Shown here piece after piece: positions 32,773 through 53,170 of a DNA stretch of 64,000 nt; position 1 is the first letter of the stretch; every line of letters begins with the position of its first letter. Under the pieces are notes generated by a model. That model saw nothing but the letters and a program-made list of their open reading frames with translations. It did not search any database and had not been told where the DNA came from. The stretch is from an uncultured Opitutaceae bacterium (GTDB lineage Bacteria; Verrucomicrobiota; Verrucomicrobiia; Opitutales; UBA2995). Location of the stretch: positions 78 to 64,077 of the forward strand of contig CAYGQM010000019.1 of NCBI GenBank assembly GCA_964352065.1, given 5' to 3'. The position numbers and the translations under genes are program-made.

Positions 32773-34649
32773 AGCCGAGTTTCAGTAGCATCGCAAAAAG
32801 ACCGATCGCGATAGAAGCCCTGTTTGCGTTCATCTGTTTTCTGTTTCTCGTACCCCAACCGTACCTCACCATTCCAGCCCTGGATGCCTCCTGGCAAGTT
32901 ACCCTCGAGGAGGCATTCTTCAAAAACTGGGAGTTTGGGACAACGATCAACTTCACGGGAGGTCCCCTTAGCTTTCTCTATACTCCCACCTCTCTCGGGT
33001 ACTACGTCTTCGGTCAGATCTTTGCTGAGTCACTGGTTATTTTCATTTCTTTGCTCCTGATATTCAGAGGTCTAAGAAATCAATCACTATGGATAAAGAT
33101 TCTCGCAGCCCTGTGCCTTAGCTTGAGTGCAGCAACCGGGAAAGACGGTATTTACCTCATATCGATTTCAGCAGCGAGCCTCACACTCCTAAATGGGAAA
33201 CCTTCCAAGTGGCTCACTTATGCGATTCCATGTTTCCTAACAGTCCTGAGTATGATGAAGTTCAGCTTTGCTACGTTGAGCATCGCTTGTATCACTATTC
33301 TAACCATCGCAGCCATTCTGCAAAAAGAACCCATCAAGGCAGTAAAACTGGTAAGCACCTATCTCGTATCGTTCCTGACCATCTGGATTCTCATTGGACA
33401 AAATCCACTGACTATTCCCGCCTTTTTTACTAATTCTCTCCAGATTTCCCAAGGTTACCTCTGGAATATGAACCTGAGTGAAAACGCGGGGACTTTTTGG
33501 TATCTGATCTCTTTTCTAATAGTATGCAGTCTTCCGATCTTTGGTTTCTGCCTCTTGGAAAGGAAACAGCTAGATGCCTGGATTATACTTTTGATTGCGG
33601 CCGCATCCATTTACCTTGCCTGGAAAGCAGGTATAACCAGAGCAGGTTCACACATGGGGTTTTTCTTACAAGCGACCTTTGTAGTTGTCCTACTGACACA
33701 AACACTGGCGAAGACTTTGTTTGTCCGTAGAATTTGGCTCGGAACGGTTACTATATTTTATTTCGTTGGTCTGACCTTTTTTTATCCCGGAGGCATCAAA
33801 CCCATCGGATCATTTACCTGGAATATTCTTAAGACCAATACAAATTTCCTTCGCAATCCCGATGCCCTCAACCAGACCTTTACCAAAGTAATTCCCATGG
33901 TACTCGCAGAAAACGAGTTACCTCAAATCAAGAAACTGATCGGCGACGCAAGCATTGACCTGCTCCATTTCCAGCAATCAGTTCTATTGCTCAACGATTT
34001 TAATTTTCAACCCCGGCCAACGGTACAGAACTATCCCGCCTACAACGAACACTTGTCTAGGTTGAACCAGGAGCACATCCGGAAAAATCCTCCCGCATAT
34101 ATCTTAGTTCGTTATGCCTTGGTCGACCAAAGGTACCCCTACTCCGACGACACTCTTTACAATCTGGAAGTATTTCAGAACTACCACCCCTTGATGGTAG
34201 AAAAAGGCTACATGCTACTCAAACGGACGGATACTCCAAAACAACTTTCAGAAGGAGAGACCGTTATAGCAACCAGTATTCAGTCAGGAGAAAATGTAGA
34301 TATTTCCCAGTTTTCGGAAAAGCTACTTTGGTTAAAAGTAAACTACCGTCCTTCACTCCTTCACAAAGTCTGCGCATTTCTTTACAAGCCCGAAGTCATT
34401 ATAATACGAGTCACACTTACCGATGGTACGGATAAGAACTTTCGGCTCGTCGGAGGTAACTTGAAAACAGGTTTCTTACTCAACCCGCTTATCGAAGGAG
34501 ACAAGGCACTTGAGGATTTCCTCAATTCACACTCCCCTGTTACGCCGATCACAAGCTTTACCATCGCGAGTATACCGGGAAACACTTTTGGCAGAACCAA
34601 GGAATTTGAATTCGAGCTTATCGAAATAAAGAAAGAGGCGACTCCCTAA
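32769..34649 (+). CDS. Polytopic membrane protein of unknown function (626 aa) with a soluble C-terminal domain
   Basis: ATG 32769 overlaps the TGA of the upstream GT (ATGA, 32769-32772). The N-terminal ~380 aa are hydrophobic spans. The longer start in the ORF track (32670) lies inside the upstream gene. Confidence 0.6.
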   Translation: MKPSFSSIAKRPIAIEALFAFICFLFLVPQPYLTIPALDASWQVTLEEAFFKNWEFGTTINFTGGPLSFLYTPTSLGYYVFGQIFAESLVIFISLLLIFRGLRNQSLWIKILAALCLSLSAATGKDGIYLISISAASLTLLNGKPSKWLTYAIPCFLTVLSMMKFSFATLSIACITILTIAAILQKEPIKAVKLVSTYLVSFLTIWILIGQNPLTIPAFFTNSLQISQGYLWNMNLSENAGTFWYLISFLIVCSLPIFGFCLLERKQLDAWIILLIAAASIYLAWKAGITRAGSHMGFFLQATFVVVLLTQTLAKTLFVRRIWLGTVTIFYFVGLTFFYPGGIKPIGSFTWNILKTNTNFLRNPDALNQTFTKVIPMVLAENELPQIKKLIGDASIDLLHFQQSVLLLNDFNFQPRPTVQNYPAYNEHLSRLNQEHIRKNPPAYILVRYALVDQRYPYSDDTLYNLEVFQNYHPLMVEKGYMLLKRTDTPKQLSEGETVIATSIQSGENVDISQFSEKLLWLKVNYRPSLLHKVCAFLYKPEVIIIRVTLTDGTDKNFRLVGGNLKTGFLLNPLIEGDKALEDFLNSHSPVTPITSFTIASIPGNTFGRTKEFEFELIEIKKEATP

Positions 34650-34660
34650 GGAATCGCCTC
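34635..34660 (-). terminator. Hairpin downstream of the giant gene (possible terminator)
   Basis: GAGGCGA (34635-34641) pairs with TCGCCTC (34654-34660) across a 12-nt loop. On the minus strand it is followed by TCTTTCTTTATTT. It overlaps the 3' end of the convergent plus-strand gene. Confidence 0.4.
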
Positions 34661-34686
34661 TGTAAAATAAGCTCTGTGCCTACGAT

Positions 34687-37600
34687 CTATTCGGAGACTT
34701 CGTATATTTCGACCAGTCCTATTCCCGTGCTACCATTTGCGCCCGACATAATAGCGGTATAAGCACCTGGTTCGAGAGTGATCAAGATTGCAGATTCCTT
34801 GGCATCAGCCGGAGCGAGTAATGAGGCTACCGTTGCAGAATTCGCAGCAGACTGCCAATCATCGTTCTCAGTGATCTTATTACCCCCTGCGAATAGCTCA
34901 AGTTTGGAATCGCCAAGAGCGCCTGAAACGCCGGCAGCCCCTAGACTTGGACCAATCGCACGAATTAGCACTTCTTTAGGACGGCTGCCAGTAACTACGA
35001 ACCCTCCAATAGTTCTCTGATCCCCACTGCCAACCAGCGCACGGGTAGAGATGTTGATCAAGCGACTGGATACGCCCCCTGAATTTTCATCTTCGACATA
35101 ATAGACCTCTACGAGTCCGATGCCCGTTCTACCTTCCGAGTCCCGGACATGTACGGTGTAAGCTCCCGGCAACAGGTCCGCCACAAGCACCGCCTCATTC
35201 GGATCGATTGGAGCCAATCCAAACTGAGCAACCAGCGCTGGTGATGTTCCATTGATCCAGGATGCATTCGAACCAACAACGATTCCATCTTTAACCAGCA
35301 GAAGATCGGGATTAGGAACGACATCAGCCGGATCTAAACCACCTTGAACCAGGGAATTTCCCAACGCGCGAATTAGAACTCTGGATGACTGAAGTCCATC
35401 ACCTTTCACCACAAAACCGGCGATCATCGTCTCCTGATCAACTCCGACCCATCCACGGGTTGAAACGTTAACCAACTCAACTTCATCAATCGGTGTAAGG
35501 TTGATGTTCAATACGATTTCACCTTCATCTCCCTCAACACCGTCTACCGCTATATGATAGGTTCTTCCCGGAATGGCGAGGAACTCAAGCCGGCTGTAAC
35601 TTACAGAAGCTCCGGCATCGTCATTGCCCCCAATTTCATTCAAAGCCATAAGTCCGGCACCTCGGTAAACGCCAATTGATGTATCGAACGTGCTACCCAT
35701 GGTATCAATAACAACCATACCCTTGACCGCTGGCGACCAGGACCACCACGATGATTTTCCACCCGAGACACCTCCATGAACGGGCTCCCCATCTTGAACC
35801 GTGCCGTTGTAGTTATTTCCATTCGCGATCACGGAATTCTCATTACCAAGATCAAATGAATCTTCAAAATCATCATTCTCAGGACTGAGTCCCAGCTGGA
35901 TAAAGATGATGCCTCCCGCGACTTCATTATCCACAACAGCTCCATCTACAGCGATACGATAGGTAGTTCCTGCGATGGCTTCAAACGCCAAGCTGGTCGG
36001 GTCCTCGCGTTGCGGATCTTCGATCGGCGTTACGGAGATCAACGACGTGACCAACGGGCCAACATAAGCACCTACTAGTGTAGCAATCGTGCTTTCATCC
36101 GTCGTTATACGAACAATTCCGTTCCCCGGTGCGGTCCAACACCACCATACGGATTTTCCACCGGGAGAGTTTGCATGCATCGGTTCGCCACTCTCACGGG
36201 TAGCAAATTGGTTTGACGCAGAACTTGTATCGGTAAATCCGTTCAATTCTCCACAATCAGCGAAGTTGTCTCCTCCAGAACTTCCTACAGCTGAGAAACT
36301 GAGAAATACCTTCCCTTGGTCCGGTTCCAAAGTTACCGCATCGACCGCAATATAATACACCGTTCCAGCCAAGACTTGGAATACCACCTGACTCGTCAGA
36401 TCCGGACTCGTGTGGTTATTGCTAGAACCATTTGCTACCGGAATAAGTGAGCCCATCGAGCTTCCTTCATAAACTGCAAGTACTGTGTCAAAATCACTTC
36501 CTGCAGTATCCAATATCGCGATACCATTGATTTCAGGACTTAACCGCCACCAAACAGAATGATTCGGAGCAACACCAGCATGAAATGGTTCGGCCAGTTC
36601 GGCATCCGCGTTATTCACGAAACTGGTAAACGTTCCTTTGCTACCGGTTATCGGAATTGCGTTCGTGAAATCATTATTCGTAGCTCCCAGAACCAGGTTC
36701 AGGTTAATAGACCCTGCTTCCGTGATTCCTGAAACAGGATCAAAAACACCATCCACAGCTATATGGTAAGTCGTTCCAGCCAGGACGCCAAACGCAACCG
36801 CGCTGGTATTAATACCGGGCAATACATCATCATTGCTGCTCACTTCTGTAAGGGTGCTTACAGAATTTCCTTCATAGACACCCAGCAATGTATTGATAGA
36901 ACTTCCTGCCGTGTCTAAAAAGAGTGTTCCATTAGCGGGGGCAGTCCAGGTAAACCAAAGCGACTTACCACCGGCATTGCCTGCATGCTGTGGCTCTCCA
37001 GGTTCTTGGAAAGCTTCAGAGTTATTTACCGTAATCGAGGCAGCATTACCGATGAGGATATCGCCACCGCTAAAGCTTCCCACTACTCGTTGGCGCTCCA
37101 GCACAAGACTCAATTCGATAGTTCCAACAAAGTCTGTTTCTTCTCCTGCAAGTTGATCGTCGCTTCCATCAACGAGGATGTAGTATACTGCACCATTCGC
37201 CGCATTGAAGCTTACAGCCCCCGTTTTTTCATTATTGGGTCCGTCGTCTTCCCCTGCGATGAGGGCTAACGTGTCCAAAGAAGTGCCTGCGTAAATCGCG
37301 ATTATCGTATCAAAATCGGAACCTGCCGTAGAGACTGAAACACGTCCATCTTTAGGAGAAGTCCACTTCCACCATACAGAGCGTCCGGCGGACTCTTCCA
37401 GATGGTTCGGCTCTCCTTCTTCAATCGATGTCTCAAAGTTGTGGGACGTAACCGAGAACTCTGGACCCGAAACCTCAATTGCGCCCGCGAAGTCATCATT
37501 TGATGGACTTTTCAAACGCAGCTGGATACCTCCGGTGGCTCCGTCTTTACCGTCCACTGCGATTTGGTATTCTGTGCCCTGCACTGCATCAAATAAAACT

Positions 37601-40600
37601 GCACTACCGACGTTCCCCGGAGCGAGGTCGTCATTTTCTGCAATCAAGTTAAGACCACTGATGCTCTGCCCCGTGTAGACAGCTAACAGGGTGTCAATCG
37701 CACTGTCTCTGGTAGTAATACTCACTGGACCCGTTTGTGGGGCCACCCAGCTCCACCAAACGGAACTACCTCCCGGTTCTCCCCCATGATTGGGTTCACC
37801 CGTTTCTTTATCGGCCCCTTCATTGCTTCCAAAAATTACCCCTGGATCATACCCCACTATTGTTGAAGGGCTGCTAATCAGGTTGTTCGTTTCAATCAAA
37901 ACGAAGTTGAAAAATATAGTTCCCTCATCTGCCTCCGCGCCCGAGGATTTACCGTCTACAGCGAAGTAATAGGTTTCACCTGCTGAGGCTAGAAAACTGA
38001 TCTGGCTCGCCCCGTCAGGACTGGAGTAGTTATCATTTTCAGTTACCAAAGTGAGCGTGCTGACAAAGTCTCCGGTATACGCAGCGAGCACGGTATCAAG
38101 AGGATCACCATTCGCATTGGCGCTTCCTGCCGTGTCTACTGACACAAGGACATCCGTCTGGGCTTCCCACTTCCACCAGATAGAAGATCCACCAGCATTT
38201 CCGCCGTGACTTGGTTCACCCGCTTCCTTGCTGGCATTGAAGTTGAATGCACTAAAGCTGAAAGATCCACTCCCTACGGGTGCCGCTCTTTCAAATGCAT
38301 CATTAGCGGGTAGCAAGCTGAGATTAAGCTCAACATCTCCAGCAGCCGTATTGCCAGTAACCGGATTGAAGCTTCCATCAATCGCGATGAAATAAGTAGT
38401 TCCTTCGGTTGCAATAAACTGCACGCTACTTGAGGTGTCACTACCAGAGGCGTCGTTGTTGCTAACGATCTCTATCAACTCACCTAATTCGGTTCCGGAA
38501 TAGACTGCCAGGAGTGAGTCGAAGGTGGATCCCGAAGTATCAATTAAAGCCAGTCCGGTCGCGGGAGCAGTCCATTCAAACCAAATCGACTTCCCGCCGG
38601 AATTTCGTGCATGCAATGGTTCAGTAGGTTCCTGAGTTGCTGTCGCATTGGTCGTGGTGATATTGAAGCCGTATCCGAAGATACCAACCGCATCTTCAAA
38701 TTTATCGGCTGGCTCAAACTCTCCACCCCCTGTGGTAGCGTTCGTGAAAGAAAGACTCAAAGCAACATTACCGGTAGCATTCTGGATATCACTACCTGCA
38801 ACGCCATCCACCATGATGAAATAAGTGACTCCACTTTCCACCAATACGGTGAGTGAACTTCCCAAGTCTTCAATACTGGCATTGTCATTAAAACCAACCA
38901 GAGTCAGATCATCTACGCTGCTTCCGAAAGCAATTGCCAGGATCGTATCGAAATCGCTTTCCAGAGTATTAATTCTCAGCTGTCCCTGTGCGGGAGCCGT
39001 CCATTGCCACCAGACGGAGCGACCGAATGTGTTGAATTCCTGAAATCCTTCGCCAAGTTCTGACGACGCGGCGTAATTATTTGCCGCCACATCACCCTCA
39101 ATACCCGGTATATCTTGAGCAAGTGAGAAATTGTCGTTCGCCGGTGCTTCGGTAAACCCGTAGTTCAACAACGCAGTTCCACGTTCACCTTCTCCGCTTT
39201 CGTTAAGTCCATCAACGGCAATCTTATAGCTGGTACCACCAAATACTGGAGTGCTGATAAACGAAACGACCTTACCAGGCTCGGCATTATCATTCGATGC
39301 TACCTCAGTCAGGCTATTGACTGTATCTCCTGTGTAGACAGCCAACAAGGTATCAAAGTCCGAAGCGGATGTATCCAAATCGATGCGACCATCTGCAGGA
39401 GCAATCCACTCCCACCAAATGGATCTATCACCAATATTCTCGGCGTGAACGGGCTCCCCAACCTCATGAGTTGCAAAATCAGTTACGCCTGACGTCGTGC
39501 CCGAGTCATCAGTGAGAAGAATGCGATCTATGAAATCATCATTTTCAGAAATCATAAACAGGCTAAGAACGATATCACCAAAGGCACCGTCTTTACCATC
39601 AACCGCGAGCTTGTACGACTGACCCGCTTCAGCGAGAATAACCACTCGGCTGGAGGTTATAACGCCTCCAAGGTCGTCATTGGCGGTGACATTTGAAAGT
39701 CCCGCGATAGTGTCTCCGGTGTAAACAGACAACAGCGTGTCTATCTCACTACCAGCTGTATCAATCACAACCATACCTTCTGCCGGTGCGAGATAGTCAT
39801 ACCATACAGAACTACCGCCTGCGTTGCTCGCATGATTACTTTCCCCCGCTTCCTTACCCGCGTTGTTGGTATAACTTTCAATCAGAAACGATCCTCCCGT
39901 AAGCAGCGTAGCATCTGAGAAGAAATCATTGAATGGAGAAAGACTCAATGAGAGCTGTATATTGCCCGTTGCAATCGTATTACCAACGAAATCATATTTA
40001 CCATCCACAGCTATAAAATACTTTTGACCTTCATTCACAGACAGCACGACCTGACTGGTTCCGTCTGGAGCAAACGCCGCAAAATCATCATTGGAAGCCA
40101 ACGCCAACAAGTTGGAAAGGCTAGTTCCCCGGTAGACTCCAAGAAGGGTATCAAAATCGCTGCCATCCGTTGATACGGTCAAATTTCCGCTATTCGGTGC
40201 GATCCATTCGAACCACACTGATCGACCGCCAGAGTTGCTGGCATGCAGGGGTTCGCCCGGCTCCTTAAAGGCATTCTCATTACTTTGGAAGGCTTCAGAA
40301 TTAAAGCCCGACATATCAATCGCACCATCAAAAGTTCCTACGATCGCTGCTTGCACGAGTTCCAGTTCCAATTCGAACTGGGTAGGTAATCCACGTATGG
40401 CAAAAAAGTATTCTTGATTCTCACCGACAGGGAGAGATACTGTTTTATTAACACCAATCGCCAACTGTCCGTTTTCGAAGTCGACAAAGTTATCTCCGAC
40501 ATAGGCTGCTACACTCAGGTCTTCAGTCAGAGAAACCGCTGAAATGTTCAAGATACCATCTGAAGGTGCTGTCCAACGATACCAGACAGAACCACCGGCG

Positions 40601-43600
40601 ACTGCATCTTCTGTCGTTGAATGAGACGGCTCACCAGCCTCCATATCTGCGTTAAAGGTTGTGTGAATGATTCCTTCGTTTACGCCGGTGAGTTCCCAAG
40701 CATTCTCCAGATCGTTATTAGCAGGCATGGACACACTGACCCTTAGCAATCCTGAGGCTCCATTTTTTCCATCAACAGCTACACGGTACCGTTCGCCAGC
40801 AACTGCTTCAAAGACAATTTTTCCGTAGAGATTTCCATCAAAGTCATCGCTAGAGCCCACCAGATTCAACTGCGCAAGCGCGTCTCCTGTATAGACAGCA
40901 AGTAGGGAATCAACAAGACTACCTTCCGTGCTGATTTCTACGGGACCCGTCGATGGAGAAACCCATGACCACCAAAGCGACTTTCCGCCGGCTACTCCTC
41001 CGTGAACGGGTTCTCCCACTTGAAGATCAGCAGCGCCGTTGTTTCCTTCGTCCTGATCAACAAACCCTGATAGGATAAAGGATTGTTGGAAATCGTTATT
41101 GTTGGTCCGTGTAGTTAGGGATAGTGTAATTTGCCCCTCAAGAGCACCAAAACCGGCATTGTAGCCATCTATAGCTATAAAGTATTCAGTTCCAGCTGTT
41201 CCAGTAAAAGCCACCTGAGATGCCAAATCTGGACTTGTGTAATTATCATTCGAATCCACTTCCACAAGGGAGCCTAAGCTATTCCCCGTATATACCCCAA
41301 GAAGCGTATCAAAATCACTTCCAGAAGTGTCGATAATCACCTGACCATTCGAAGGCGCGGTCCAACGCCACCATGAGGACCTACCCCCGATATTTCCAGC
41401 GTGGTCCGGTTCACCTAACTCTTCAGTTGCATTCAAGTTAAAGCCGCCAACGCTCAATGAAGTGCCGGCAATTACACTGGCATTTTCGAAAAGATCATTC
41501 TGTGGCAAAAGATTTAATTGCAGGTATATATCTCCCTCAGTCGTTGTGGATCCATCAAATTCACCGTCCACTGCAATCCAGTAAGTAGTCCCACCGATTG
41601 CTAAGAAATTAACTTCACTGGTCTCACCAGGTCCACTATCATTGTCACTCGCTACTTCCTGGAGGCTAGTGATCTCGTCGCCAACATAAACTGCCAGTAT
41701 CGTATCAAAATAACTGTCTGGAAAAGCGATAGGATCGAAGTCATCCCAATAGGTCTTTAAATTGACCAATCCATCTGCTGGTGCAGTCCATTTCCACCAC
41801 GCAGATTTACCAGCTGCGTTCCCACCATGTTGGGGCTCAAGTGGCTCCTGAGTTGCGTTGTAATTATCTCCCTGTGCGGTAATCGTATAGAGATCATCCG
41901 CATCGTCACCAAGATCCTCAGCATTACTGAAATTATCATTATACTCCTGAATGATCTTTAAAGTGATATTACCTTCTGAAGGCACGGCACCTATGGGGCC
42001 ATCCACCGCGATACGGTATACGATTCCACGCTGCGCTACGAATCGAACAGCACTATCAGAAGTATACAAGACGATGGGTTGGCCTGTCTGTGGATCCGTT
42101 TCAATTCCTGTAACATTGTCCCCAACGAGAGTAGGCTCCAGGGAGTTTAATTGCCCACCCGTGTAAACCGCGATAACTGGCTTCCAGTTGATTTCGTCAA
42201 GAACAGTCGTCGCAGTCGTTGAGATAGAAACCGTTCCAGTCGTAGGAGCTTCCCAAGACCACCAGATCGACTTACCCACACTCGCAAGCGCGTGATTAGG
42301 CTCTCCGCCTTCTCGACCTGCGGTGACGTTACTGGAATCTTCCTCATGTGCGAGGGATTTGAGAAATTGACTCGAGTCGTTGGTATAAGAAAAGAGGTCA
42401 TTGAAGGTCTCAAAAGACAGATCGAATTTGTAATCACCAAAGTCTCCACCCGCACCGTCCAAGGCGATTGAAAAAATATCTCCTTTGTCAACCGACAAAC
42501 GGATTTCGCTGGTGTCAACGGTTCCGTCTTTGTTGTCATTGCCCGCTACTTGAGTCAGATTCGTAAGGCTCGGCCCACGGTAAACGCCCAGAAGGGTATC
42601 AAAGTTACTGCCATCGGTAGAAAGGATAACGTCACCAACCGCCACAGAAGTCCAAGAGAACCAAACTGATTTTCCTCCTACTACACCCGCATGGTCGGGT
42701 TCAGCGCCTTCGAAAGTCGCAGCGGCGGTATTTCCTACAACCGTTGCTGCAAATCCTCCAAGGAAACGACGGTCGTCGAAGAAGTCATTATCCACGGGCG
42801 TGGGTTGGCTCAAATCATACTGAGTTACAAAGCCGGCGGATAACCCCGGATCGATGTTGATCGTATTCCCAATGGTATCTTCTCCACGAAGATATTGAAC
42901 ATCCGATGGGCTAGCTGTGGCGTCAACCGTCGTGAAGAAATCCGTGGAGTTTGTGTAGCCGGTTACAAATACGCGGCTCGGATCAAAAGTGCTATTAATT
43001 GCCACCTTATTGCCTTCGTCATCACTGAATCCACCGAGGTAGGTACTAAAATCGAGCGAAGATCCATCCACACTAAAGTTGGCGATAAAAACATCTTTGC
43101 TGCCGTTTGCAACAATATCGAATGCATTGCTTGATACAGGAAAATCTTCCGAGGCTGTAAAACCGGTTACGACTGCTTCATCATCAGCATTAATCACAAT
43201 GGATTGTAAAACATCATCCGCTTCTCCACCCAGATAGGTGCTAAATACCATCTGATCATTGTTATCAAGCTGGGTGGGATCCAACTTAAACAACCATCCA
43301 TTCAATCCACCTTCGTATTTAGTCTGCAAAGCATCATTAGAAGTTGGAAAATCAGTCGAAGAGGTAGATCCACCGATATAAAGCAACCCAGCAGAATCAA
43401 TTGCGATATCATAACCGACATCATCGGCGTCGAACTGACTACCTCCAGGCGTAGGTGTAAATCCGTCTTCACCCACTCCCTGCTCACCGTCGCCACCTTC
43501 ACCAAGTCCGCGAGGTCCGCCACCCAACCAGGTAGCATAGGTCAAAGCATCCAGACGCGCGATTTGCCCTGCCAGTAACACCGCAGTGTAATTCGCACGG

Positions 43601-45837
43601 GCGGCATCATAGGCAGACACAACATCCGCATAATCAGCAAGTGCATCGGCCCGGGCATCAAGGACATCTTGCTCTGCAGGTGTCGGAGCAAATGGGTCGG
43701 CAGCCTCGTAGTCTGGTACCGCTTGAGGAAGCTCGTAAGTCCAACGCGGAACAGACCCAAGATTCGAAACATTGAAAATTTGTAGGTCATCAGAATAACC
43801 CTGCAGAGCTATCGCATAAGCATTCAAATCCGACGCATATTGAATAAAGCCATCTTCATCGCCTAAGTCAGTATCGAATTCGGGAACGTCAGCGACTGGC
43901 TGAGTTGGAGGCGTAACAAGGCTCGGAGCTGATTCAGGACTAATCTCGATCGCAAACGAATCGAATCCCCCGTTAAAGCTACTGTCGAATGAGGTGTAGT
44001 TGTTCGTTATAGGAAAACTGTTTATTAGAGTAATCACTCCCGTTTCTTCGTCTACTTCCTCAGCAACGATAGGAAAATAAATAATAGGGAATGGCGCCGA
44101 GTCGTCTGGATCTGTATCGAACGATTTGGAGGCGCCTGTGGCCCAGATATGCACATCACTGATATTGGAATCATCCACGGAAACTTCGTAAAGGTAATCG
44201 TCTTCACCTCCAGCAATCAGGGTTGAATACTCAATGTCTGAAACAGCACCTATCGGATTTGCTGCCAATACCGTCACGAACGAGTCGATCGTTCCACCAC
44301 CTAAAAAACGGGGTTGAAGGTTAATGGCGTTATCCGTAACCGGAAAGATCTGGAACCCCGTAAAATCCAAATTCGGCTCGATCGGCGTCGTCGTGCCAAC
44401 TATATAAGCTCGACCCGCACTGTCCACATCGATGCCATAAGCAACGTCATACATCAATCCGTTGGCAGCACCTTCTCCGAGAAGCGCACTGTAAACGATA
44501 TCATCACCTTGTGGATTCAGTTTAAGAACAATAGCATCCTCAGTGTTGGTTCCGTCACCGAATCCTAAATTCGCCGACTCTGCAATCAACGTAAAGCTGT
44601 CCAAAGGCACTGGGTTGTGCAGTAACCCAACGTATTCGCCTTCTTCGTATGAAACCTGGGTGTAGTACCGATAGTCTGCAGGAAAGTCTTCGGAAGCAGT
44701 AGCCCCTGCTACATAGACGCTACCAGACGCATCCAGTGCCAAGTCGTAAGCGACGTCTTGGCCACTGCCGCCGCTACCGTTGGTTTGTCCTGCCCCACCA
44801 ATATAAGTGCTCCACTCAAAGCTCAGCCCGTCAGGTGCAACTTTGGACACAAAAATATCCGACGTTCCACCGTTGTAGCTACTGTCCAAAGTACCTGAAA
44901 ACTGAGTCGTTGGAAAATCGAACGAAGATGTCACACCCGTAAGATAAACATGTCCGGTATCGTCTACTTCGATACCATAAGCAACCTCCCCACCGGTTCC
45001 TCCGAAAATCTTTGAGTATTCAATAACAGGATCAATTACCAGAGGAAGTGTCTCATCATAGTCCTTAACCAGGAATTGCACAGTTTCTTCATCAATCAAA
45101 TGAAACTCACCTTCTACCTGAATGGAATTTCCGTCTACGACCTGATAAATATACGGACGACGCTGAACCAAATCACCGTCATGAATCCTCAAGATCAAAT
45201 CTCCAGATGCATTTACACTGAGCTCTTCAACCCCATCAAATTTCATCCGAATATTTTCAAATGAAGCTCCTGGTTGAACGATAAAATCATATTGCACTTG
45301 GCGCTGGTTACCGTAGTAAACCACATCGATTCCGTCGTAGAGATTCTTGTACCGCACCTTTTGAAATGTGGAAACGTTACGCACCCACTTTTCGCGGTCC
45401 CGTCCTCGAAAATAATTTACCTTGGAGGCAAGCTCTCCTTCTGACTCCATTCGGACATCTTCATTAGATCCATCAAACTGCATGCGAACCGCATACGCTT
45501 GCGGAACTTCCGGCATCTTATGTGAAGAAGGAATTCCGGATTTGAATGAAGGGGCTTCAGTAACCGGCTGATAAATCATCATGATCCGCTCTTCGGGAGT
45601 GAGAAGTAGCTGATAACCTAAACCGCGGGCGACATACTTAACCCGATCGTCGAGCTGACCGCGGTTTTCCTCAAAATGGAGAGGAATCGCATCAAACCGC
45701 TGGAGGGTCTCGTTGGAGGGGGACTCTGAGATCTCTCCAGCAGACTCGGCTTGTGACCAAACTGATGAGAAAAGGAAACCTAGGGTCAAGACAGTGAGTA
45801 GTTTTTTTGTCATAGGGACAGGTATTAATTTAAACAT
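34687..45837 (-). CDS. Giant secreted protein (3,716 aa): signal peptide, SBBP-type beta-propeller region, 18 tandem ~135-aa modules, twin C-terminal module
   Basis: 'MTKKLLTVLTLGFLFSSVWSQAES' signal peptide (alternative start ATG 45813). 'PLHFEENRGQ' N-domain. Repeated '...YSTYLGG...D.A.DSSG..Y..G.T.S.DFP' SBBP-like units. A single uninterrupted 11-kb ORF. Confidence 0.9.
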   Translation of the reverse strand: MFKLIPVPMTKKLLTVLTLGFLFSSVWSQAESAGEISESPSNETLQRFDAIPLHFEENRGQLDDRVKYVARGLGYQLLLTPEERIMMIYQPVTEAPSFKSGIPSSHKMPEVPQAYAVRMQFDGSNEDVRMESEGELASKVNYFRGRDREKWVRNVSTFQKVRYKNLYDGIDVVYYGNQRQVQYDFIVQPGASFENIRMKFDGVEELSVNASGDLILRIHDGDLVQRRPYIYQVVDGNSIQVEGEFHLIDEETVQFLVKDYDETLPLVIDPVIEYSKIFGGTGGEVAYGIEVDDTGHVYLTGVTSSFDFPTTQFSGTLDSSYNGGTSDIFVSKVAPDGLSFEWSTYIGGAGQTNGSGGSGQDVAYDLALDASGSVYVAGATASEDFPADYRYYTQVSYEEGEYVGLLHNPVPLDSFTLIAESANLGFGDGTNTEDAIVLKLNPQGDDIVYSALLGEGAANGLMYDVAYGIDVDSAGRAYIVGTTTPIEPNLDFTGFQIFPVTDNAINLQPRFLGGGTIDSFVTVLAANPIGAVSDIEYSTLIAGGEDDYLYEVSVDDSNISDVHIWATGASKSFDTDPDDSAPFPIIYFPIVAEEVDEETGVITLINSFPITNNYTSFDSSFNGGFDSFAIEISPESAPSLVTPPTQPVADVPEFDTDLGDEDGFIQYASDLNAYAIALQGYSDDLQIFNVSNLGSVPRWTYELPQAVPDYEAADPFAPTPAEQDVLDARADALADYADVVSAYDAARANYTAVLLAGQIARLDALTYATWLGGGPRGLGEGGDGEQGVGEDGFTPTPGGSQFDADDVGYDIAIDSAGLLYIGGSTSSTDFPTSNDALQTKYEGGLNGWLFKLDPTQLDNNDQMVFSTYLGGEADDVLQSIVINADDEAVVTGFTASEDFPVSSNAFDIVANGSKDVFIANFSVDGSSLDFSTYLGGFSDDEGNKVAINSTFDPSRVFVTGYTNSTDFFTTVDATASPSDVQYLRGEDTIGNTINIDPGLSAGFVTQYDLSQPTPVDNDFFDDRRFLGGFAATVVGNTAAATFEGAEPDHAGVVGGKSVWFSWTSVAVGDVILSTDGSNFDTLLGVYRGPSLTNLTQVAGNDNKDGTVDTSEIRLSVDKGDIFSIALDGAGGDFGDYKFDLSFETFNDLFSYTNDSSQFLKSLAHEEDSSNVTAGREGGEPNHALASVGKSIWWSWEAPTTGTVSISTTATTVLDEINWKPVIAVYTGGQLNSLEPTLVGDNVTGIETDPQTGQPIVLYTSDSAVRFVAQRGIVYRIAVDGPIGAVPSEGNITLKIIQEYNDNFSNAEDLGDDADDLYTITAQGDNYNATQEPLEPQHGGNAAGKSAWWKWTAPADGLVNLKTYWDDFDPIAFPDSYFDTILAVYVGDEITSLQEVASDNDSGPGETSEVNFLAIGGTTYWIAVDGEFDGSTTTEGDIYLQLNLLPQNDLFENASVIAGTSLSVGGFNLNATEELGEPDHAGNIGGRSSWWRWTAPSNGQVIIDTSGSDFDTLLGVYTGNSLGSLVEVDSNDNYTSPDLASQVAFTGTAGTEYFIAIDGYNAGFGALEGQITLSLTTRTNNNDFQQSFILSGFVDQDEGNNGAADLQVGEPVHGGVAGGKSLWWSWVSPSTGPVEISTEGSLVDSLLAVYTGDALAQLNLVGSSDDFDGNLYGKIVFEAVAGERYRVAVDGKNGASGLLRVSVSMPANNDLENAWELTGVNEGIIHTTFNADMEAGEPSHSTTEDAVAGGSVWYRWTAPSDGILNISAVSLTEDLSVAAYVGDNFVDFENGQLAIGVNKTVSLPVGENQEYFFAIRGLPTQFELELELVQAAIVGTFDGAIDMSGFNSEAFQSNENAFKEPGEPLHASNSGGRSVWFEWIAPNSGNLTVSTDGSDFDTLLGVYRGTSLSNLLALASNDDFAAFAPDGTSQVVLSVNEGQKYFIAVDGKYDFVGNTIATGNIQLSLSLSPFNDFFSDATLLTGGSFLIESYTNNAGKEAGESNHASNAGGSSVWYDYLAPAEGMVVIDTAGSEIDTLLSVYTGDTIAGLSNVTANDDLGGVITSSRVVILAEAGQSYKLAVDGKDGAFGDIVLSLFMISENDDFIDRILLTDDSGTTSGVTDFATHEVGEPVHAENIGDRSIWWEWIAPADGRIDLDTSASDFDTLLAVYTGDTVNSLTEVASNDNAEPGKVVSFISTPVFGGTSYKIAVDGLNESGEGERGTALLNYGFTEAPANDNFSLAQDIPGIEGDVAANNYAASSELGEGFQEFNTFGRSVWWQWTAPAQGQLRINTLESDFDTILAIAFGSSVDDLTLVGFNDNASIEDLGSSLTVLVESGVTYFIMVDGVAGSDIQNATGNVALSLSFTNATTGGGEFEPADKFEDAVGIFGYGFNITTTNATATQEPTEPLHARNSGGKSIWFEWTAPATGLALIDTSGSTFDSLLAVYSGTELGELIEIVSNNDASGSDTSSSVQFIATEGTTYFIAIDGSFNPVTGNTAAGDVELNLSLLPANDAFERAAPVGSGSFSFSAFNFNASKEAGEPSHGGNAGGSSIWWKWEAQTDVLVSVDTAGSANANGDPLDTVLAAYTGDFVSTLTLVTENDNYSSPDGASQISFLASAGETYYFAVDGKSSGAEADEGTIFFNFVLIETNNLISSPSTIVGYDPGVIFGSNEGADKETGEPNHGGEPGGSSVWWSWVAPQTGPVSITTRDSAIDTLLAVYTGQSISGLNLIAENDDLAPGNVGSAVLFDAVQGTEYQIAVDGKDGATGGIQLRLKSPSNDDFAGAIEVSGPEFSVTSHNFETSIEEGEPNHLEESAGRSVWWKWTSPKDGRVSVSTAGSDFDTIIAIYAGTSLDTLALIAGEDDGPNNEKTGAVSFNAANGAVYYILVDGSDDQLAGEETDFVGTIELSLVLERQRVVGSFSGGDILIGNAASITVNNSEAFQEPGEPQHAGNAGGKSLWFTWTAPANGTLFLDTAGSSINTLLGVYEGNSVSTLTEVSSNDDVLPGINTSAVAFGVLAGTTYHIAVDGVFDPVSGITEAGSINLNLVLGATNNDFTNAIPITGSKGTFTSFVNNADAELAEPFHAGVAPNHSVWWRLSPEINGIAILDTAGSDFDTVLAVYEGSSMGSLIPVANGSSNNHTSPDLTSQVVFQVLAGTVYYIAVDAVTLEPDQGKVFLSFSAVGSSGGDNFADCGELNGFTDTSSASNQFATRESGEPMHANSPGGKSVWWCWTAPGNGIVRITTDESTIATLVGAYVGPLVTSLISVTPIEDPQREDPTSLAFEAIAGTTYRIAVDGAVVDNEVAGGIIFIQLGLSPENDDFEDSFDLGNENSVIANGNNYNGTVQDGEPVHGGVSGGKSSWWSWSPAVKGMVVIDTMGSTFDTSIGVYRGAGLMALNEIGGNDDAGASVSYSRLEFLAIPGRTYHIAVDGVEGDEGEIVLNINLTPIDEVELVNVSTRGWVGVDQETMIAGFVVKGDGLQSSRVLIRALGNSLVQGGLDPADVVPNPDLLLVKDGIVVGSNASWINGTSPALVAQFGLAPIDPNEAVLVADLLPGAYTVHVRDSEGRTGIGLVEVYYVEDENSGGVSSRLINISTRALVGSGDQRTIGGFVVTGSRPKEVLIRAIGPSLGAAGVSGALGDSKLELFAGGNKITENDDWQSAANSATVASLLAPADAKESAILITLEPGAYTAIMSGANGSTGIGLVEIYEVSE
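34690..35475 (-). repeat. Twin C-terminal module (2 x ~125 aa), also present in the neighbouring Calx-beta protein
   Basis: 'LVNVSTRGWVGVDQETMIAGFVVKG...VLIRALGNSL...LLPGAYTVHVR...GIGLVEVYYV' and 'LINISTRALVGSGDQRTIGGFVVTG...VLIRAIGPSL...LEPGAYTAIMS...GIGLVEIYEV'. Confidence 0.9.
35480..42800 (-). repeat. 18 tandem, diverged copies of a ~135-aa protein module (about 405-nt period)
   Basis: Each copy starts 'ND.F' and carries 'GEP.H(A/G)...GG(K/R)S(V/I)WW.WTAP..G.....T.GS.FDT(L/I)L.VY.G.SL..L..VA.NDD......Y.IAVDG'. I counted 18 copies in the translation. End coordinates are approximate. Confidence 0.9.
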
Positions 45838-46266
45838 TTAAAGAGCTAATAAGTAGGAGCAGGCTGCGAGCGTGGCACAATTGGTTCTAAATTCATTTAC
45901 CATCCTCCCATTCGATACTGTACTAAGGGGGAATCAGAAGCTAAGAGCCGACATAGCTGGCTTTTTTAGAAAAATTTGAAATCTAGAGGAAATCCCTCCG
46001 TATATAGAACCTCATCTGGGAGTACCCCACTGTGAGCCTTGGATAACCATTCTAACCCTAAGGTCTCGTAGGCCCATAAACACAGGGGATAAGCGGGCAA
46101 TCAGCTTGTTTAGGAGAAGCGATAAGAAAGTATTTATCACTGCGCGATCCATACCCACCTGAAGATTCATTGACACCTTGTCCCAATGATCCGTGTTAAT
46201 TAGTTTCTAAAAACCATCAAGGTGCAGAAAACCTTAGAAAACCAAGATTTCTGGGGGCCTTGTCGT

Positions 46267-49236
46267 TCAATTCAGGGTATAAATCTCTACAGAACCAATA
46301 CCAGCATCGCCGCCTGCTGACCTCAGATGAAGTGTGTATACACCAGGTTCAAGGTCCAACAACATAGCAGATTCAGTATCCATCGGTGCGAAAAGCGTAG
46401 CCTCGATCTCGTCCCAATTGATTGCATCAAACCAGTTATCATTCGAATAAATCACTACGCCTGAGCTGTTGAATAAGAGCAATTCCGGATCTGCCAACGA
46501 AGGACTTCCCGGAACAATCAGCGAAGGACCCATACCACGAAACAGCAGCTGTTTTGATTCACTACCACCAATGATTAAGCCTCCGATCAAAATTTCCGCA
46601 CCGGATGAAACTCGTCCACGGGTCGAGATGTTGACGAGATCCCCATCTAGGCCAGCCGATGCATCTACATACAGTTCAATTGCGCCGATACCCGTCCCCC
46701 CATTTCCAGAAACGATCGCCGAGTAAGTCCCTGCTGGCAGAGTCGTGATAATTGCGCTTTCACTGGTATTGAGACCGGTTAGACCCGTATCAATAATCGC
46801 CTGGATCTGCGACGTGTCATCAATCCAATTATCGTTTTCCTCGACCACCATTTGGGTTGTATTGTCTATTATCTGCAATGAAGGATTCGGTAATACGTTT
46901 TCAACTCCAACAAGAGATGGCCCAACCGCACGTATGAGAACCTTTTGAGGTCCGTTAAAGATGATAAAGCCTCCGATAAGAACCTCATCATTCAGGCCCA
47001 CATATCCCCGAGTCGATAGATTAACCAATTCACCGGTTTCGCGATCGTCATCATAAATGAGTGCCTCGCCATTTGAGAGATCCCCGATCCGGGCGTTGTT
47101 ACTGGGTTCACTTAATGAAAGACTTACCCGTTCACTCTGTTCGGGAATAGAATCATTGAGTATAACAAGATTAAACAGTTTGGGCGACAAATCACCAGCT
47201 TCCCAAAAAAGTGCAGTGTCGAGTATGACATAATCGGAGCCAGCCACTGCATTCGAGTCTGCCGAGGAGACTCTAACCGAGGCTTCACCAACGCCATCAC
47301 CAAATCGATCAACCTGAATCAGAATCTCTTCACTTCCTTCAGTACCGGAATAAAGGATACGATCAAATTCAAACCAGGTACCCGGCTGTTCCTCATCGTC
47401 CGTTATTGTGATGGTATGGACACTATTTGCTCCAGCAACCGAACCGCTATCGACATCAGAAAGATAGACCGTAAAAACTTCCGGACCTTCAAACAATTCG
47501 TCGTTGAGAAGTCCTATAGAAATCTCTTTGGCAGAAGAGTCTCCATCCGCCCAGTTTAATACACCCACCTGACTAATGAAATCCAAAGACGCCATCGCCG
47601 AACCGGCGTTGGTTTCATAAGCGACAGAAACCGCACCGGTGGATCCTCCCAAACGTTGAATACTCACTGACACAGCGCTACTGTCCTCTGAAACTGTTTG
47701 AGACGATTCCGCAAAAACGACCGTCCCGGAATCATTGAGATCGTCATCCTCGATGATCACGCTAACAATAAAGTTATCATTGAAGAGTCCACCCGTTGAA
47801 GAATCCAAGGAGATAAAAAACGCTTCGTCTGACTCGAAGGCAGCATCGTCAATAATCGGAACCAAGATCGTCTTATCTGCGCCGTCACCGTCTTCCCAAG
47901 ACAAAGAACCATCTATGCCCGTAAAATCCGCACCCGCATTCGCAGTAGAATCGGAAAATGAATAATCGACATCAATCTTCCCGAAGGTGCCTCCGGTTCT
48001 TGAGACTACGATACCAGCCGTTCCCGATGACTCCTCAACCGACAGAAGTTCACTGGCAAACCCTATCGTTCCCACTTCCGATGTTGCGTTGTCATCATCC
48101 TGAATTGTAACCGTAACCGTCGAAACAATAAGGACCGCATCTCCCGTGCCAAGAGTAAGCTCCACCTCAAAGCTTTTATCGACTTCATCGACCTGATCAT
48201 CAGCTACAGAAATGCTAATCGACCGCGAGGTATTGGATCCGTTTATCCAGTTCAAAGTCCCGCTGGCGCTCGTAAAATCGATACCATCCAGTGCAGTGCC
48301 GCCCCGGGTTGCATACTGCACCGAAACCGCGCCCTGATTGCCCCCGGTTCTTTCCACAACCAAATCGACTTGCTCTTCAGATTCCGCAACTTGAATTTCT
48401 GAAACAGACCAGCCAATATTTCCCGCAGAAGATTCGTCGTCCTCAATGATTACCCTGACCTGCGAGGTAGATCCGAGTTCAGCAGAATCTGGATCAGAAA
48501 GAAGTATCGTAAACTCCTCATCAGGCTCAGAGATAAAATCGTCATTCAAACTGATGAAGACGCTTTTCTGAATATCCCCAACGCCAAAGGTCAATGCTCC
48601 GCTTTTCGATTGGAAATCGGTAACTGCCAAAGCCGTTACTCCCGACGTTTCATAATTGACAGTCGCAGATGAATTGATGCCCCCGCTTCGGGTCGCGACG
48701 ACTTCCACCATTGCCTCGTCCTCAGCGACGCGTACCACCCCTTGGGCCCACTGAATAAATGCAGTCTCGTCGTCGAGAATCGTTATTTGAAGATCTTTTC
48801 GACTCCCAATGGTAACACCCGTTCCCGGATTGAATAATTGCAATAGAAACGTCTCATCACCCTCTTCTAGAGCATCCTGACTAATTCTGACACTGATCTG
48901 AAGCTCCTCTTTCCCTGAAGTGAACAAAGCCTGGCGACTGGATATCGCCTGATAATCAAATCCCGAGGTTGCTGATACCTCTACAGATCGGTAGAAGACC
49001 CTCGCAAGGCCGCTCAAATTGCCGCTACGGATCAGCGTTACATCGACTGTTCCAGCAGACTCATCGTAAGAAACTGCCGCTTCGCTCCATTGAATTTCAG
49101 CATTCTGAGCAAAGGCAGAAATTGCTGAAATGAAGAGGGCAGGAACAATCCACTGGAATCGTCCTAGATTTTTAATTAGTAGTTTCAAGGCTACGAAGCT
49201 TCGGCCCAAACCTGTTTGAAGTGAGTAGCGAAGCAA
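46267..49236 (-). CDS. Secreted protein with six Calx-beta domains and the twin C-terminal module (989 aa)
   Basis: Six units of the type 'V.Y.T..GTA..G.DF....G.L.W..GD...K.I.I.I.DD...E.DE.F.V.L'. Signal-like 'WIVPALFISAISAFAQN'. The only start offered is TTG at 49236, with no in-frame ATG before the signal peptide, so the start is uncertain. Confidence 0.85.
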   Translation of the reverse strand: MLRYSLQTGLGRSFVALKLLIKNLGRFQWIVPALFISAISAFAQNAEIQWSEAAVSYDESAGTVDVTLIRSGNLSGLARVFYRSVEVSATSGFDYQAISSRQALFTSGKEELQISVRISQDALEEGDETFLLQLFNPGTGVTIGSRKDLQITILDDETAFIQWAQGVVRVAEDEAMVEVVATRSGGINSSATVNYETSGVTALAVTDFQSKSGALTFGVGDIQKSVFISLNDDFISEPDEEFTILLSDPDSAELGSTSQVRVIIEDDESSAGNIGWSVSEIQVAESEEQVDLVVERTGGNQGAVSVQYATRGGTALDGIDFTSASGTLNWINGSNTSRSISISVADDQVDEVDKSFEVELTLGTGDAVLIVSTVTVTIQDDDNATSEVGTIGFASELLSVEESSGTAGIVVSRTGGTFGKIDVDYSFSDSTANAGADFTGIDGSLSWEDGDGADKTILVPIIDDAAFESDEAFFISLDSSTGGLFNDNFIVSVIIEDDDLNDSGTVVFAESSQTVSEDSSAVSVSIQRLGGSTGAVSVAYETNAGSAMASLDFISQVGVLNWADGDSSAKEISIGLLNDELFEGPEVFTVYLSDVDSGSVAGANSVHTITITDDEEQPGTWFEFDRILYSGTEGSEEILIQVDRFGDGVGEASVRVSSADSNAVAGSDYVILDTALFWEAGDLSPKLFNLVILNDSIPEQSERVSLSLSEPSNNARIGDLSNGEALIYDDDRETGELVNLSTRGYVGLNDEVLIGGFIIFNGPQKVLIRAVGPSLVGVENVLPNPSLQIIDNTTQMVVEENDNWIDDTSQIQAIIDTGLTGLNTSESAIITTLPAGTYSAIVSGNGGTGIGAIELYVDASAGLDGDLVNISTRGRVSSGAEILIGGLIIGGSESKQLLFRGMGPSLIVPGSPSLADPELLLFNSSGVVIYSNDNWFDAINWDEIEATLFAPMDTESAMLLDLEPGVYTLHLRSAGGDAGIGSVEIYTLN
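46270..47028 (-). repeat. Twin C-terminal module (2 x ~125 aa), paralogous to 34690-35475
   Basis: 'LVNLSTRGYVGLNDEVLIGGFIIFNGPQKVLIRAVGPSL...LPAGTYSAIVS...GIGAIELYV' and 'LVNISTRGRVSSGAEILIGGLIIGG...LLFRGMGPSL...LEPGVYTLHLR...GIGSVEIYTL'. Confidence 0.9.
47040..49100 (-). repeat. Six tandem Calx-beta domains (~115 aa each)
   Basis: Unit boundaries are marked by acidic ends 'ILDDE', 'IEDDE', 'IQDDD', 'IEDDD', 'ITDDE', 'IYDDD'. Coordinates are approximate. Confidence 0.8.
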
Positions 49237-49323
49237 ATGAAATATAAAATTTCACACTTTCATTACTGCCTTCAGGCACCCCTCCCAAACAAAAGGTTTG
49301 CGCCCCCCAGTAAGAGGTAAACC

Positions 49324-50244: not shown

Positions 50245-50747
50245 GATGCGGTCCAATACTCCGTTAATCCACCTGTAAGTCCGAAGATTGGATCTCTTGG
50301 TGGTACCGGTAGCGCGGCAATGTTCTCCAACACAGCAGGCCTCTCTTCGGGTCTGCCATACTGCATATCCCAATCGAACCCTTTCGGATAACCACCAATC
50401 ACTCCAAAATCGGCGCTGGATCCTTTATTGAAGTGTCCCACACCAGCTGGGATCAAAATAACGTCACCCGCATGAATATGAAGGAGCTTTCCATTCTCAC
50501 CTCCCAAGAGTACTTTTGCTTCACCTTGGTAGCAACCCAGTACCTCGTGTGAGGTGCTATGGTAATGATGGAAGGAGTAAATTCCGTTACGCCAAAACCG
50601 AGACCATCCATTACCGGAAAACATCCTCTCCAGTTGATCTGCGGCCTTACGACCTCTACCGACATCCAATTGTGAATACACCAATAACGGTAATGGATTA
50701 TTGGGAATCGATCCGTCGTCCGGAAACACAAAAGGCGTCACTTTCAC
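50241..50747 (-). CDS. Cupin-domain protein (YjlB-like)
   Basis: 'FHHYHSTSHEVLGCYQGEAKVLLGG...IHAGDVILIPAGVGH' cupin motifs. I place the start at GTG 50747 (or 50741), just after the hup terminator. The longer ORF-track start (50909) would overlap hup. Confidence 0.65.
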   Translation of the reverse strand: MKVTPFVFPDDGSIPNNPLPLLVYSQLDVGRGRKAADQLERMFSGNGWSRFWRNGIYSFHHYHSTSHEVLGCYQGEAKVLLGGENGKLLHIHAGDVILIPAGVGHFNKGSSADFGVIGGYPKGFDWDMQYGRPEERPAVLENIAALPVPPRDPIFGLTGGLTEYWTAS

Positions 50748-50752
50748 ACAAT

Positions 50753-50781: not shown

Positions 50782-50802
50782 AAATTATTTTGGAAACTAG
50801 TT

Positions 50803-52783: not shown

Positions 52784-52805
52784 AACTTTGCTACGTTACT
52801 AACCT

Positions 52806-53150: not shown

Positions 53151-53170
53151 CCGGCCTTACCTCTATATCC

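Follow-up and report, generated by a model that had tools for sequence, protein, structure and literature searches.

A giant secreted protein of an uncultured Opitutaceae bacterium carries 18 modules of a divergent, uncharacterised PPC / collagen-binding-domain subfamily

Which domain is repeated 18 times in a single bacterial protein, and what could such an array be for? The question is raised by a gene of an uncultured Opitutaceae bacterium (assembly GCA_964352065.1, contig CAYGQM010000019.1), which lies within the 64,000 nucleotides analyzed here (the window). The gene occupies positions 34687..45837 on the minus strand as one unbroken open reading frame (ORF) of 3,716 codons plus stop, as an earlier preliminary description of the sequence had stated, and encodes a secreted protein of 3,716 aa. 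That description could not assign the repeated module to a named family. Based on our analysis the 18 modules are a divergent, abundant and uncharacterised subfamily of the pre-peptidase C-terminal (PPC) / collagen-binding-domain fold; the fold is known, the subfamily is unnamed.

The number of modules was determined in two ways. In a motif scan the block E-[PSG]-x-[HQ] occurred exactly 18 times, always with a W-[WFY]-x-[WYL] block behind it and at a spacing of 126-155 residues. A hidden Markov model (HMM) of the 18 modules and their homologues then recovered all 18 within aa 1015-3448 with per-module E values from 4e-23 to 5e-50, and in the six-frame translation of the window it found these 18 modules and nothing else. 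The count given previously was thereby reproduced. Motif scan, alignment, Pfam and HMM delimit an array from aa 1015 to 3452 (35482..42795, minus strand), in which modules of 126-155 aa are joined by linkers of 2-4 residues starting with P-x-N-D-x-F. Pairwise identity between the modules was 35% on average (range 21-47%). Tandem Repeats Finder detected no array within the ORF, hence the copies are diverged at the DNA level too, in agreement with the strong divergence described before.

The complete protein matched the PPC family of Pfam (PF04151) in five stretches with 43.7 bits, compared to a gathering cutoff of 25.9 bits. Among the single modules 11 of 18 matched at E <= 1; the best of these reached 23.5 bits, below the cutoff, with its residues 44-113 on profile positions 3-69 of 70. 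Such a shortfall lies within the spread of the family itself and need not speak against membership, since the bona fide PPC domain s3a of ColG scored only 26.3 bits in the same scan (s3b: 43.1 bits). Furthermore, PF04151 was found at E <= 1e-5 in 34 of the 36 multi-module family members scanned. NCBI uses the name 'PPC domain-containing protein' for homologues from Opitutaceae and Verrucomicrobiae that the module profile retrieved, and about one third of them carry a precomputed PF04151 match. The module can thus be placed in a named family after all.

The structural data point in the same direction. An AlphaFold2 model of modules 4 and 5 (alignment of 66 rows) had a mean predicted local distance difference test score (pLDDT) of 94.2 and a predicted template modelling score (pTM) of 0.76, and was all-beta with eight to nine strands per module. 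Its best match in the PDB according to Foldseek was 5IKU, the Ca2+-bound tandem s3a-s3b of ColG (E 2e-11, probability 1.00), and further strong fold matches were botulinum HA70/HA3 and CUB domains. Template modelling scores against solved structures were low (0.35-0.38) because two domains of differing mutual orientation were compared. The PF04151 score and the model match to the collagen-binding domains of ColG therefore identify the module as a PPC-type jelly roll, a resemblance already suspected in the preliminary description.

Other families were considered as well. When the 18-module profile was compared with the sequences in the PDB, no meaningful match was obtained (best E 0.36, a chalcone isomerase), so sequence similarity between module and ColG is undetectable by this route. 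No match to a carbohydrate-binding module (CBM) or lectin family was obtained in Pfam scans of the whole protein or of single modules. A weak cumulative match of the whole protein to PF23759 (GBD_T9SS_assoc, 40.4 bits), shared by 20 of the 36 family members, suggests a common broad group of sandwich folds. However, only profile positions ~35-70 of 116 were matched, the best single module stayed below threshold (E 0.057), and no C-terminal domain of the type IX secretion system type was detected in the giant protein. NCBIfam gave no match to the whole protein at E <= 1. PPC domains in the original sense lie C-terminal to a secreted peptidase; the giant protein is without a peptidase domain, none being found across its 3,716 aa with Pfam and NCBIfam.

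The comparison with ColG allows the common and the specific features of the module to be separated. Both proteins have the beta-sandwich fold, share a Pfam profile across ~70 central residues, on which module and s3a score similarly, open with Asn-Asp (the ND of the module aligns to that of ColG) and are built head-to-tail with a short linker. On Pfam profile positions 4-7 we found Y-Y-S-F in s3b, T-F-Y-F in s3a and W45-W46-R47-W48 in module 4, the reference module. The WW.W block, which had been regarded as foreign to PPC domains, lies on the same positions as YY.F of ColG and is therefore the ordinary PPC aromatic strand.

The differences start with the copy number, which is 1-2 in ColG and 18 in the giant protein. 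The distance from the opening ND to Pfam profile position 3 is 26 residues in s3a and s3b, but 40 in the module. Comparison by hhalign with s3a/s3b revealed a 14-residue insertion at T27..G40 of the module (41386..41427, minus strand, in module 4); this alignment was not significant (P 0.38) and was used as a topological map only, cross-checked by the shared Pfam profile coordinates. The insertion of about 14 residues contains E29 and E32-P-x-H35 (E32-P-D-H35 in module 4), is found where ColG has a short acidic Ca2+ loop, and lies outside the 70-position Pfam model. E-P-x-H is therefore a subfamily-specific feature, and its earlier placement outside the classical PPC domain was correct. Additionally, the module has a co-conserved cluster of D66, NDD and S96, unlike ColG.

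How widespread is this type of module? When 1.84 billion cluster representatives were searched exhaustively with the HMM of the 18 modules, 36,354 proteins were found at E <= 1e-3, 21,999 at 1e-10 and 8,200 at 1e-30. The best 150 of them carried 6-27 copies each and were up to 5,262 aa long. The 18-copy architecture is thus not unusual but one of thousands alike. Those sources that carry a name or title were Opitutaceae, Verrucomicrobiae, Kiritimatiellales, Planctomycetia/Planctomycetota and one Maricaulaceae isolate, and standalone secreted proteins with a single module exist as well (e.g. P0117, 156 aa). Partner domains were mostly Ig, SdrD_B, CarboxypepD_reg, dockerin and Flg_new_2, occasionally lysyl oxidase, i.e. 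mostly structural or adhesion-type domains and rarely enzymes. For the subfamily we found no NCBIfam model, no solved structure by sequence and no dedicated study. A literature search on PPC arrays in Verrucomicrobia, DUF7948 or SBBP returned nothing relevant.

To describe the conserved positions we used 1,682 modules from 150 proteins. Most frequent were W45 (99%), S/T43 (98%), E32 (95%), D4 (94%), Y108 (93%), N3 and L80 (92% each) and G74 (90%), followed by W48 (88%), Y72 (86%), P33 (85%), E29 (83%, with Gln in a further 12%) and H35 (68%). Within the giant protein E32, S43 and W45 were present in all 18 modules, H35 in 17 and P33 in 16, which agrees with the strict core reported earlier. 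The ND.F start ascribed to every module could not be upheld, as the opening ND or a near variant was seen in 13 of the 18 modules.

A mean-field coupling analysis was carried out on 1,145 gap-poor modules, with gap-poor columns used to avoid gap artefacts. It yielded sheet-like ladders (71-98, 56-102, 55-101 and 47-109), and the pairs given below were among the strongest couplings. H35 was coupled to A111 (z 12.3), Y72 (9.2) and D113 (5.3), and D113 in turn to S43 (5.7) and G40 (5.9); further pairs were E32-W45 (4.4) and D4-T27 (7.0). A second set comprised D66-D88 (7.2), D66-D87 (7.0) and N86-S96 (9.1). Contingency counts over 1,890 modules gave a consistent picture. When H35 was present, the frequencies of Y72, A111, D113 and E32 were 96%, 89%, 83% and 100%, compared to 60%, 41%, 45% and 81% when it was absent; in the latter case Phe takes position 72 and Arg, Gln or Ser take position 111. 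Likewise, D66 was accompanied by D87 in 79%, D88 in 69%, N86 in 67% and S96 in 84% of modules, compared to 17%, 16%, 20% and 28% in its absence (Fisher P < 1e-20 in all tests). Two co-conserved polar clusters can thus be distinguished, E32/H35/S43/Y72/A111/D113 and D66/N86-D87-D88/S96. The pattern supports the view that the invariant residues form discrete units, with which a metal site and a hydrogen-bonded latch would both be compatible, and lends indirect support to a putative conserved metal or ligand site in each module.

Two further ideas were dropped. A placement of the conserved loops at one pole of the sandwich by strand parity was abandoned, since according to the couplings a single kinked strand may span residues 10-22, and the parity would then be different. 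An enzymatic role of the conserved Glu and His was discarded for a sandwich of ~130 aa that has no match to a catalytic family and whose partner domains are structural.

The individual modules, all on the minus strand, are located as follows. Module 1 comprises aa 1015-1147 (42397..42795; HMM E 1.3e-40). Module 2 (aa 1148-1302, 41932..42396; E 4.8e-30) is the longest, lacks the opening ND and has two extra loops. It is followed by module 3 (aa 1303-1444, 41506..41931; E 1.1e-37), the reference module 4 (aa 1445-1577, 41107..41505; E 4.7e-50) and module 5 (aa 1578-1704, 40726..41106; E 7.6e-40), the latter two being those modelled with AlphaFold. Module 6 (aa 1705-1830, 40348..40725; E 4.2e-23) is the most degenerate; it has lost most of the D66/NDD (FDT/NDD) cluster as well as D113, and AIRG replaces AVDG. 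Next are module 7 (aa 1831-1967, 39937..40347; E 1.1e-42), module 8 with the variant E-S-N-H (aa 1968-2096, 39550..39936; E 6.8e-43) and module 9 (aa 2097-2231, 39145..39549; E 1e-43). Module 10 (aa 2232-2374, 38716..39144; E 2.3e-39) is the only one without His35, E-G-F-Q replacing E-P-x-H, and carries Ala instead of Tyr72; this double loss fits the family-wide co-variation of H35 and Y72. The remaining copies are module 11 (aa 2375-2509, 38311..38715; E 1.1e-43), module 12 (aa 2510-2649, 37891..38310; E 5.8e-40), module 13 (aa 2650-2777, 37507..37890; E 1.5e-45), module 14 (aa 2778-2916, 37090..37506; E 5.8e-42), module 15 (aa 2917-3051, 36685..37089; E 8.9e-44), module 16 (aa 3052-3186, 36280..36684; E 7.4e-38), module 17 (aa 3187-3319, 35881..36279; E 2e-37) and module 18 (aa 3320-3452, 35482..35880; E 8.2e-41).

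A gene of this size and composition might be a pseudogene, or might have been created by faulty assembly or by slippage in recent times, but nothing in favour of any of these was found. A frame that stays open over 3,716 codons cannot be due to chance, and the DNA showed no tandem repeat. When the full protein was searched against genomes, two orthologous fragments were obtained from metagenome-assembled genomes, one from 'Verrucomicrobia bacterium KW1-S08_24' (aa 1-1198, 65% identity) and one from an 'uncultured Opitutales bacterium' (aa 2671-3716, 58.5% identity). Both were collinear with the giant gene and free of stops in the aligned frame. Identity at codon positions 1/2/3 was 0.74/0.83/0.41 for the former and 0.71/0.76/0.34 for the latter; third positions approach saturation, whereas second positions retain 76-83% identity, a pattern typical of purifying selection. 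The gene order is conserved as well, with a family 2 glycosyltransferase (GT2) gene and a Calx-beta protein gene on one side and a 659-aa membrane protein gene followed by a four-domain GT2 gene on the other. An artefactual or decayed gene is thus effectively refuted. Orthologous modules were ~58% identical, paralogous ones ~35%, so the array predates the split of these lineages. This and the codon-position pattern are in line with the old array under selection that the preliminary description had proposed.

Outside the array the protein contains further recognizable parts. It has a mass of ~392 kDa, a pI of ~4.05 and a net charge of ~-382, with 526 Asp+Glu compared to 144 Lys+Arg and only 2 Cys. 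The N-terminus (MFKLIPVPMTKKLLTVLTLGFLFSSVWSQA/ES) is probably a Sec signal peptide from aa 1 to ~30 (45748..45837, minus strand): sequence reading and hydropathy scan indicate a basic n-region with K-K, a hydrophobic core at aa 12-27 and a small-x-small site S-Q-A/E. An alternative start at Met9 is possible. The probable signal peptide is followed by a DUF7948 domain (aa 55-271, 45025..45675, minus strand; PF25778, E 2.7e-65) and an SBBP beta-propeller region (aa 272-1014, 42796..45024, minus strand; PF06739, 4 stretches, 60.5 bits). Signal peptide and propeller head had both been recognized before; the head was confirmed and the signal peptide is probable.

At least 3,596 homologues of this head were found. 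They carry the same pair of DUF7948 and SBBP repeats at the N-terminus and tails of many kinds, and are named 'SBBP repeat-containing protein' by NCBI, as is the orthologue of the giant protein. The head is therein a typical member, but its tail differs: among the head matches listed, tails were PKD, Big, Calx-beta, DUF11 and FN3, and PF04151 was present in none, so that a PPC-array tail on an SBBP head is a less common combination. The propeller is broken by a ~120-aa Ala/Asp/Tyr-rich segment (…DVLDARADALADYADVVSAYDAARANYTAVLLAGQIARLDAL…) at aa ~640-760 (window ~43560..43920, minus strand), which looks helical and matched no family. Most likely a marine, Opitutales-like verrucomicrobium secretes this very acidic giant protein to its cell surface.

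What could the array do? The collagen-binding domains of ColG are PPC domains, and their collagen binding requires Ca2+ (PMC6168687). Furthermore, with Ca2+ the helical linker between s3a and s3b turns into a strand (PMC4356367). For the giant protein we propose a stalk stabilised by a metal, most likely Ca2+, which would display the DUF7948-SBBP head, and we give this proposal an even chance of being correct. The insertion with E29 and E32-P-x-H35, in place of the acidic Ca2+ loop of ColG, would be pinned to the sandwich by the network of E32, H35, S43, Y72 and D113. Together with N3-D4 and the second acidic cluster (D66, N86-D87-D88, S96) it may provide one or two cation sites per module, most likely for Ca2+. 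The bound metal would stiffen each module and the short inter-module junctions, and the array would act as a long protease-resistant stalk that keeps the head away from the cell. Metal binding, stiffness, surface localisation and the end by which the protein would be attached all belong to this proposal, in which Ca2+ would act much as it does in ColG s3a-s3b and in repeat-rich Ca2+-dependent adhesins.

Repeat stalks stiffened by Ca2+ are known from Marinomonas MpIBP, Salmonella SiiE and the classical cadherins. Tandem beta-sandwiches in a very acidic protein, and conserved Asp, Asn or Glu at or near the domain junctions, are common to these stalks and the giant protein, for which the principle itself is only proposed. 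The linker P-x-N-D-x-F is reminiscent of 'DxNDNxPxF' in cadherins. However, the known stalks have an Ig or cadherin fold and the giant protein a PPC jelly roll, so this is a resemblance and not a membership. In addition, the repeats of MpIBP are far less diverged than the 18 modules, and no RTX / type I secretion signal was seen.

Several observations weigh against a Ca2+-stiffened stalk. The Ca2+ ligands of ColG, which we take to be N903/D904 in the N-terminal linker and D927/D930 in the acidic loop (numbering of Wilson et al. 2003), are not retained in the loop: the counterparts of D927 and D930 in the module are G41 and S44 (hhalign, P 0.38), and the site of the module, if any, is therefore not the ColG site. 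The spatial clustering of the conserved residues is derived from covariation together with that same non-significant alignment. The extender repeats of well-known giant adhesins are usually near-identical, whereas the modules share 35% identity and each is individually conserved in orthologues, so that they could have individual roles. Finally, His is an untypical Ca2+ ligand, and the pattern of H35, Y72, A111 and D113 would fit a purely structural hydrogen-bond latch equally well.

Taken further, the latter point leads to a passive spacer, in which E-P-x-H would be a fold-stabilising His-Tyr-Asp latch without metal or ligand and the array would merely give length and bulk. The replacements seen upon loss of H35 (Phe for Y72; Arg, Gln or Ser for A111) are a signature of packing and hydrogen bonding, and H35 is kept in only 68% of the family modules. 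Nevertheless, we regard a spacer of this kind as quite improbable. E32 (95%), N3-D4 (92-94%) and D66/N86-D87-D88/S96 are typical cation ligands, these candidate ligands are co-conserved as sets, the protein is extremely acidic, and the homologous ColG domains bind Ca2+ (PMC6168687, PMC4356367).

The divergence of the modules, together with their individual conservation in orthologues, would also suit a multivalent binding array. Here each module would be lectin-like or collagen-binding-like, with E-P-x-H and the acidic clusters as a possibly metal-dependent ligand site, and 18 copies would provide avidity for a polymer such as a polysaccharide of algae or of a host, or a protein matrix. The closest solved structures, the ColG collagen-binding domains, are substrate-binding PPC domains (PMC6168687), and the fold matches to botulinum HA70/HA3 and CUB include sugar- or ligand-binding sandwiches. 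Polar loop residues that are near-invariant over 1,682 modules and the existence of secreted proteins with a single module (P0117, 156 aa) are in agreement with it. On the other hand, none of the CBM or lectin families in Pfam matched the sequence, and it was not possible to locate the collagen-contact tyrosines of ColG in the module. The conserved residues resemble a cation or hydrogen-bond network and not an aromatic platform, the invariant Trp residues sit on the PPC core strand, and the genomic context points to no ligand. A binding array is therefore possible but rather doubtful, and clearly less probable than the metal-stabilised stalk, although the two are not exclusive of each other.

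The last 264 aa of the protein, overlooked in the preliminary description, form a separate tandem domain of two ~125-aa beta-sandwich units (aa 3453-3716, 34690..35481, minus strand), identified by homologue search, AlphaFold and Foldseek. Its pattern is 'N-x-S-T-R..V..GD...I.GF...G ... NDDW ... L.PG.YT ... TG.GLVE.Y'. No match, whether to a curated sorting or anchor domain or to any other family, was found in Pfam (E <= 10), in NCBIfam (whole protein, E <= 1) or among PDB sequences. The AlphaFold model (pLDDT 92.4, pTM 0.87) had 5IKU as its best structural match (E 2e-8). Homology of this tandem to the modules is not claimed by sequence, since hhalign shared only a weak 'D..L.l...NDD' stretch (E 0.024). 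Most likely the giant protein is built from three widely reused cassettes, i.e. the DUF7948 and SBBP head, the 18 sandwich modules and a C-terminal PPC-like pair.

At least 2,934 homologues of the C-terminal tandem were found, among others in Chthoniobacterales, Chromatiales, Competibacteraceae and Terriglobia, with varying N-terminal parts (FN3, plastocyanin, M10 peptidase, DUF11, cyclophilin). Of the 120 best matches, 116 had no more than 10 residues between the end of the tandem and the C-terminus. The same tandem terminates the upstream same-strand neighbour of the giant gene, a 989-aa protein with six Calx-beta domains according to Pfam (46267..49236, minus strand), whose position is kept in one of the two orthologous contigs; in this neighbour the tandem comprises aa ~736-989 (window ~46270..47031, minus strand; 43% identity, E 2e-43). 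Its place at the very end of many secreted proteins that are otherwise unrelated makes the tandem a candidate for a shared secretion, retention or anchor module. No conserved partner gene was found beside other proteins with this tandem in two long contigs. A more far-reaching interpretation would combine both elements: the E-P-x-H insertion, with E32/H35/S43/Y72/D113, and the D66/NDD/S96 cluster would make a metal or metal-dependent ligand site that classical PPC domains lack, so that the subfamily of roughly 36,000 members would be a new adhesive or lectin-like class, and the tandem would be a new retention or secretion tag across several Gram-negative phyla. We consider this combination unlikely.

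The window represents a surface-glycan biosynthesis region. It encodes two ABC-2 (Wzm/Wzt-type) transporter pairs, one with a Wzt C-terminal domain, many GT1/GT2 enzymes, methyltransferases, a set for the synthesis of 3'-phosphoadenosine 5'-phosphosulfate (PAPS) and MurJ. A scan of the 429-bp gap upstream of the giant gene for promoters and terminators gave nothing informative. The first ~20 kb (1..20000) had a G+C content of 36-42%, compared to 45-51% in 20000..64000, and contained genes for a GT2, a STELLO-like glycosyltransferase, an ABC-2/Wzt transporter, methyltransferases, a cytidylyltransferase and a SIS protein. This part resembles a variable island of the O-antigen type that may have been gained by horizontal transfer. 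It also includes a 758-aa ORF (6604..8880, minus strand) without Pfam family at E <= 1e-5.

A sulfate-activation set is located at 19769..25378 and consists of an inositol-monophosphatase-family protein (CysQ-like), PAPS_reduct (CysD-like), an EF-Tu-type GTPase (CysN-like) and APS kinase. Its position within the glycan locus hints at a sulfated surface glycan. Near the giant gene, a 1,783-aa protein with four GT2 domains and an internal duplication is encoded at 27421..32772 (plus strand); its aa 358-719 and 1423-1782 matched the same stretch of the Opitutales contig with 49% and 83% identity, respectively. The 3' end of this gene overlaps the next listed ORF by 103 nt, and the start of that ORF is probably the internal Met34, which overlaps the GT2 gene stop codon. 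As listed, it spans 32670..34649 (plus strand), is convergent with the giant gene at a gap of 37 bp and encodes the 659-aa membrane protein, which is polytopic, ends in a soluble part, is conserved with 68% identity in the Opitutales contig and has no Pfam match. This protein could be a GT-C-type glycosyltransferase or polymerase that has so far escaped recognition.

Taken for this window alone the finding is modest, as the modules are well-behaved members of a known fold family. Should the insertion turn out to make a new binding site, or the C-terminal tandem to be a new sorting or anchor domain, its weight would rise. The tandem may matter more than the modules, as it is at least as widespread, occurs in many unrelated secreted proteins and has no named family. 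Beyond this locus, tens of thousands of proteins of environmental bacteria, especially Verrucomicrobiota, Planctomycetota and Kiritimatiellota, carry the module, often in giant arrays, and are labelled 'PPC domain-containing' or 'hypothetical'. A family model of its own would be justified for the subfamily. Seen as a separate branch of PPC, marked by its defined insertion and its two co-conserved polar clusters, it offers a testable handle on the role of these giant surface proteins.

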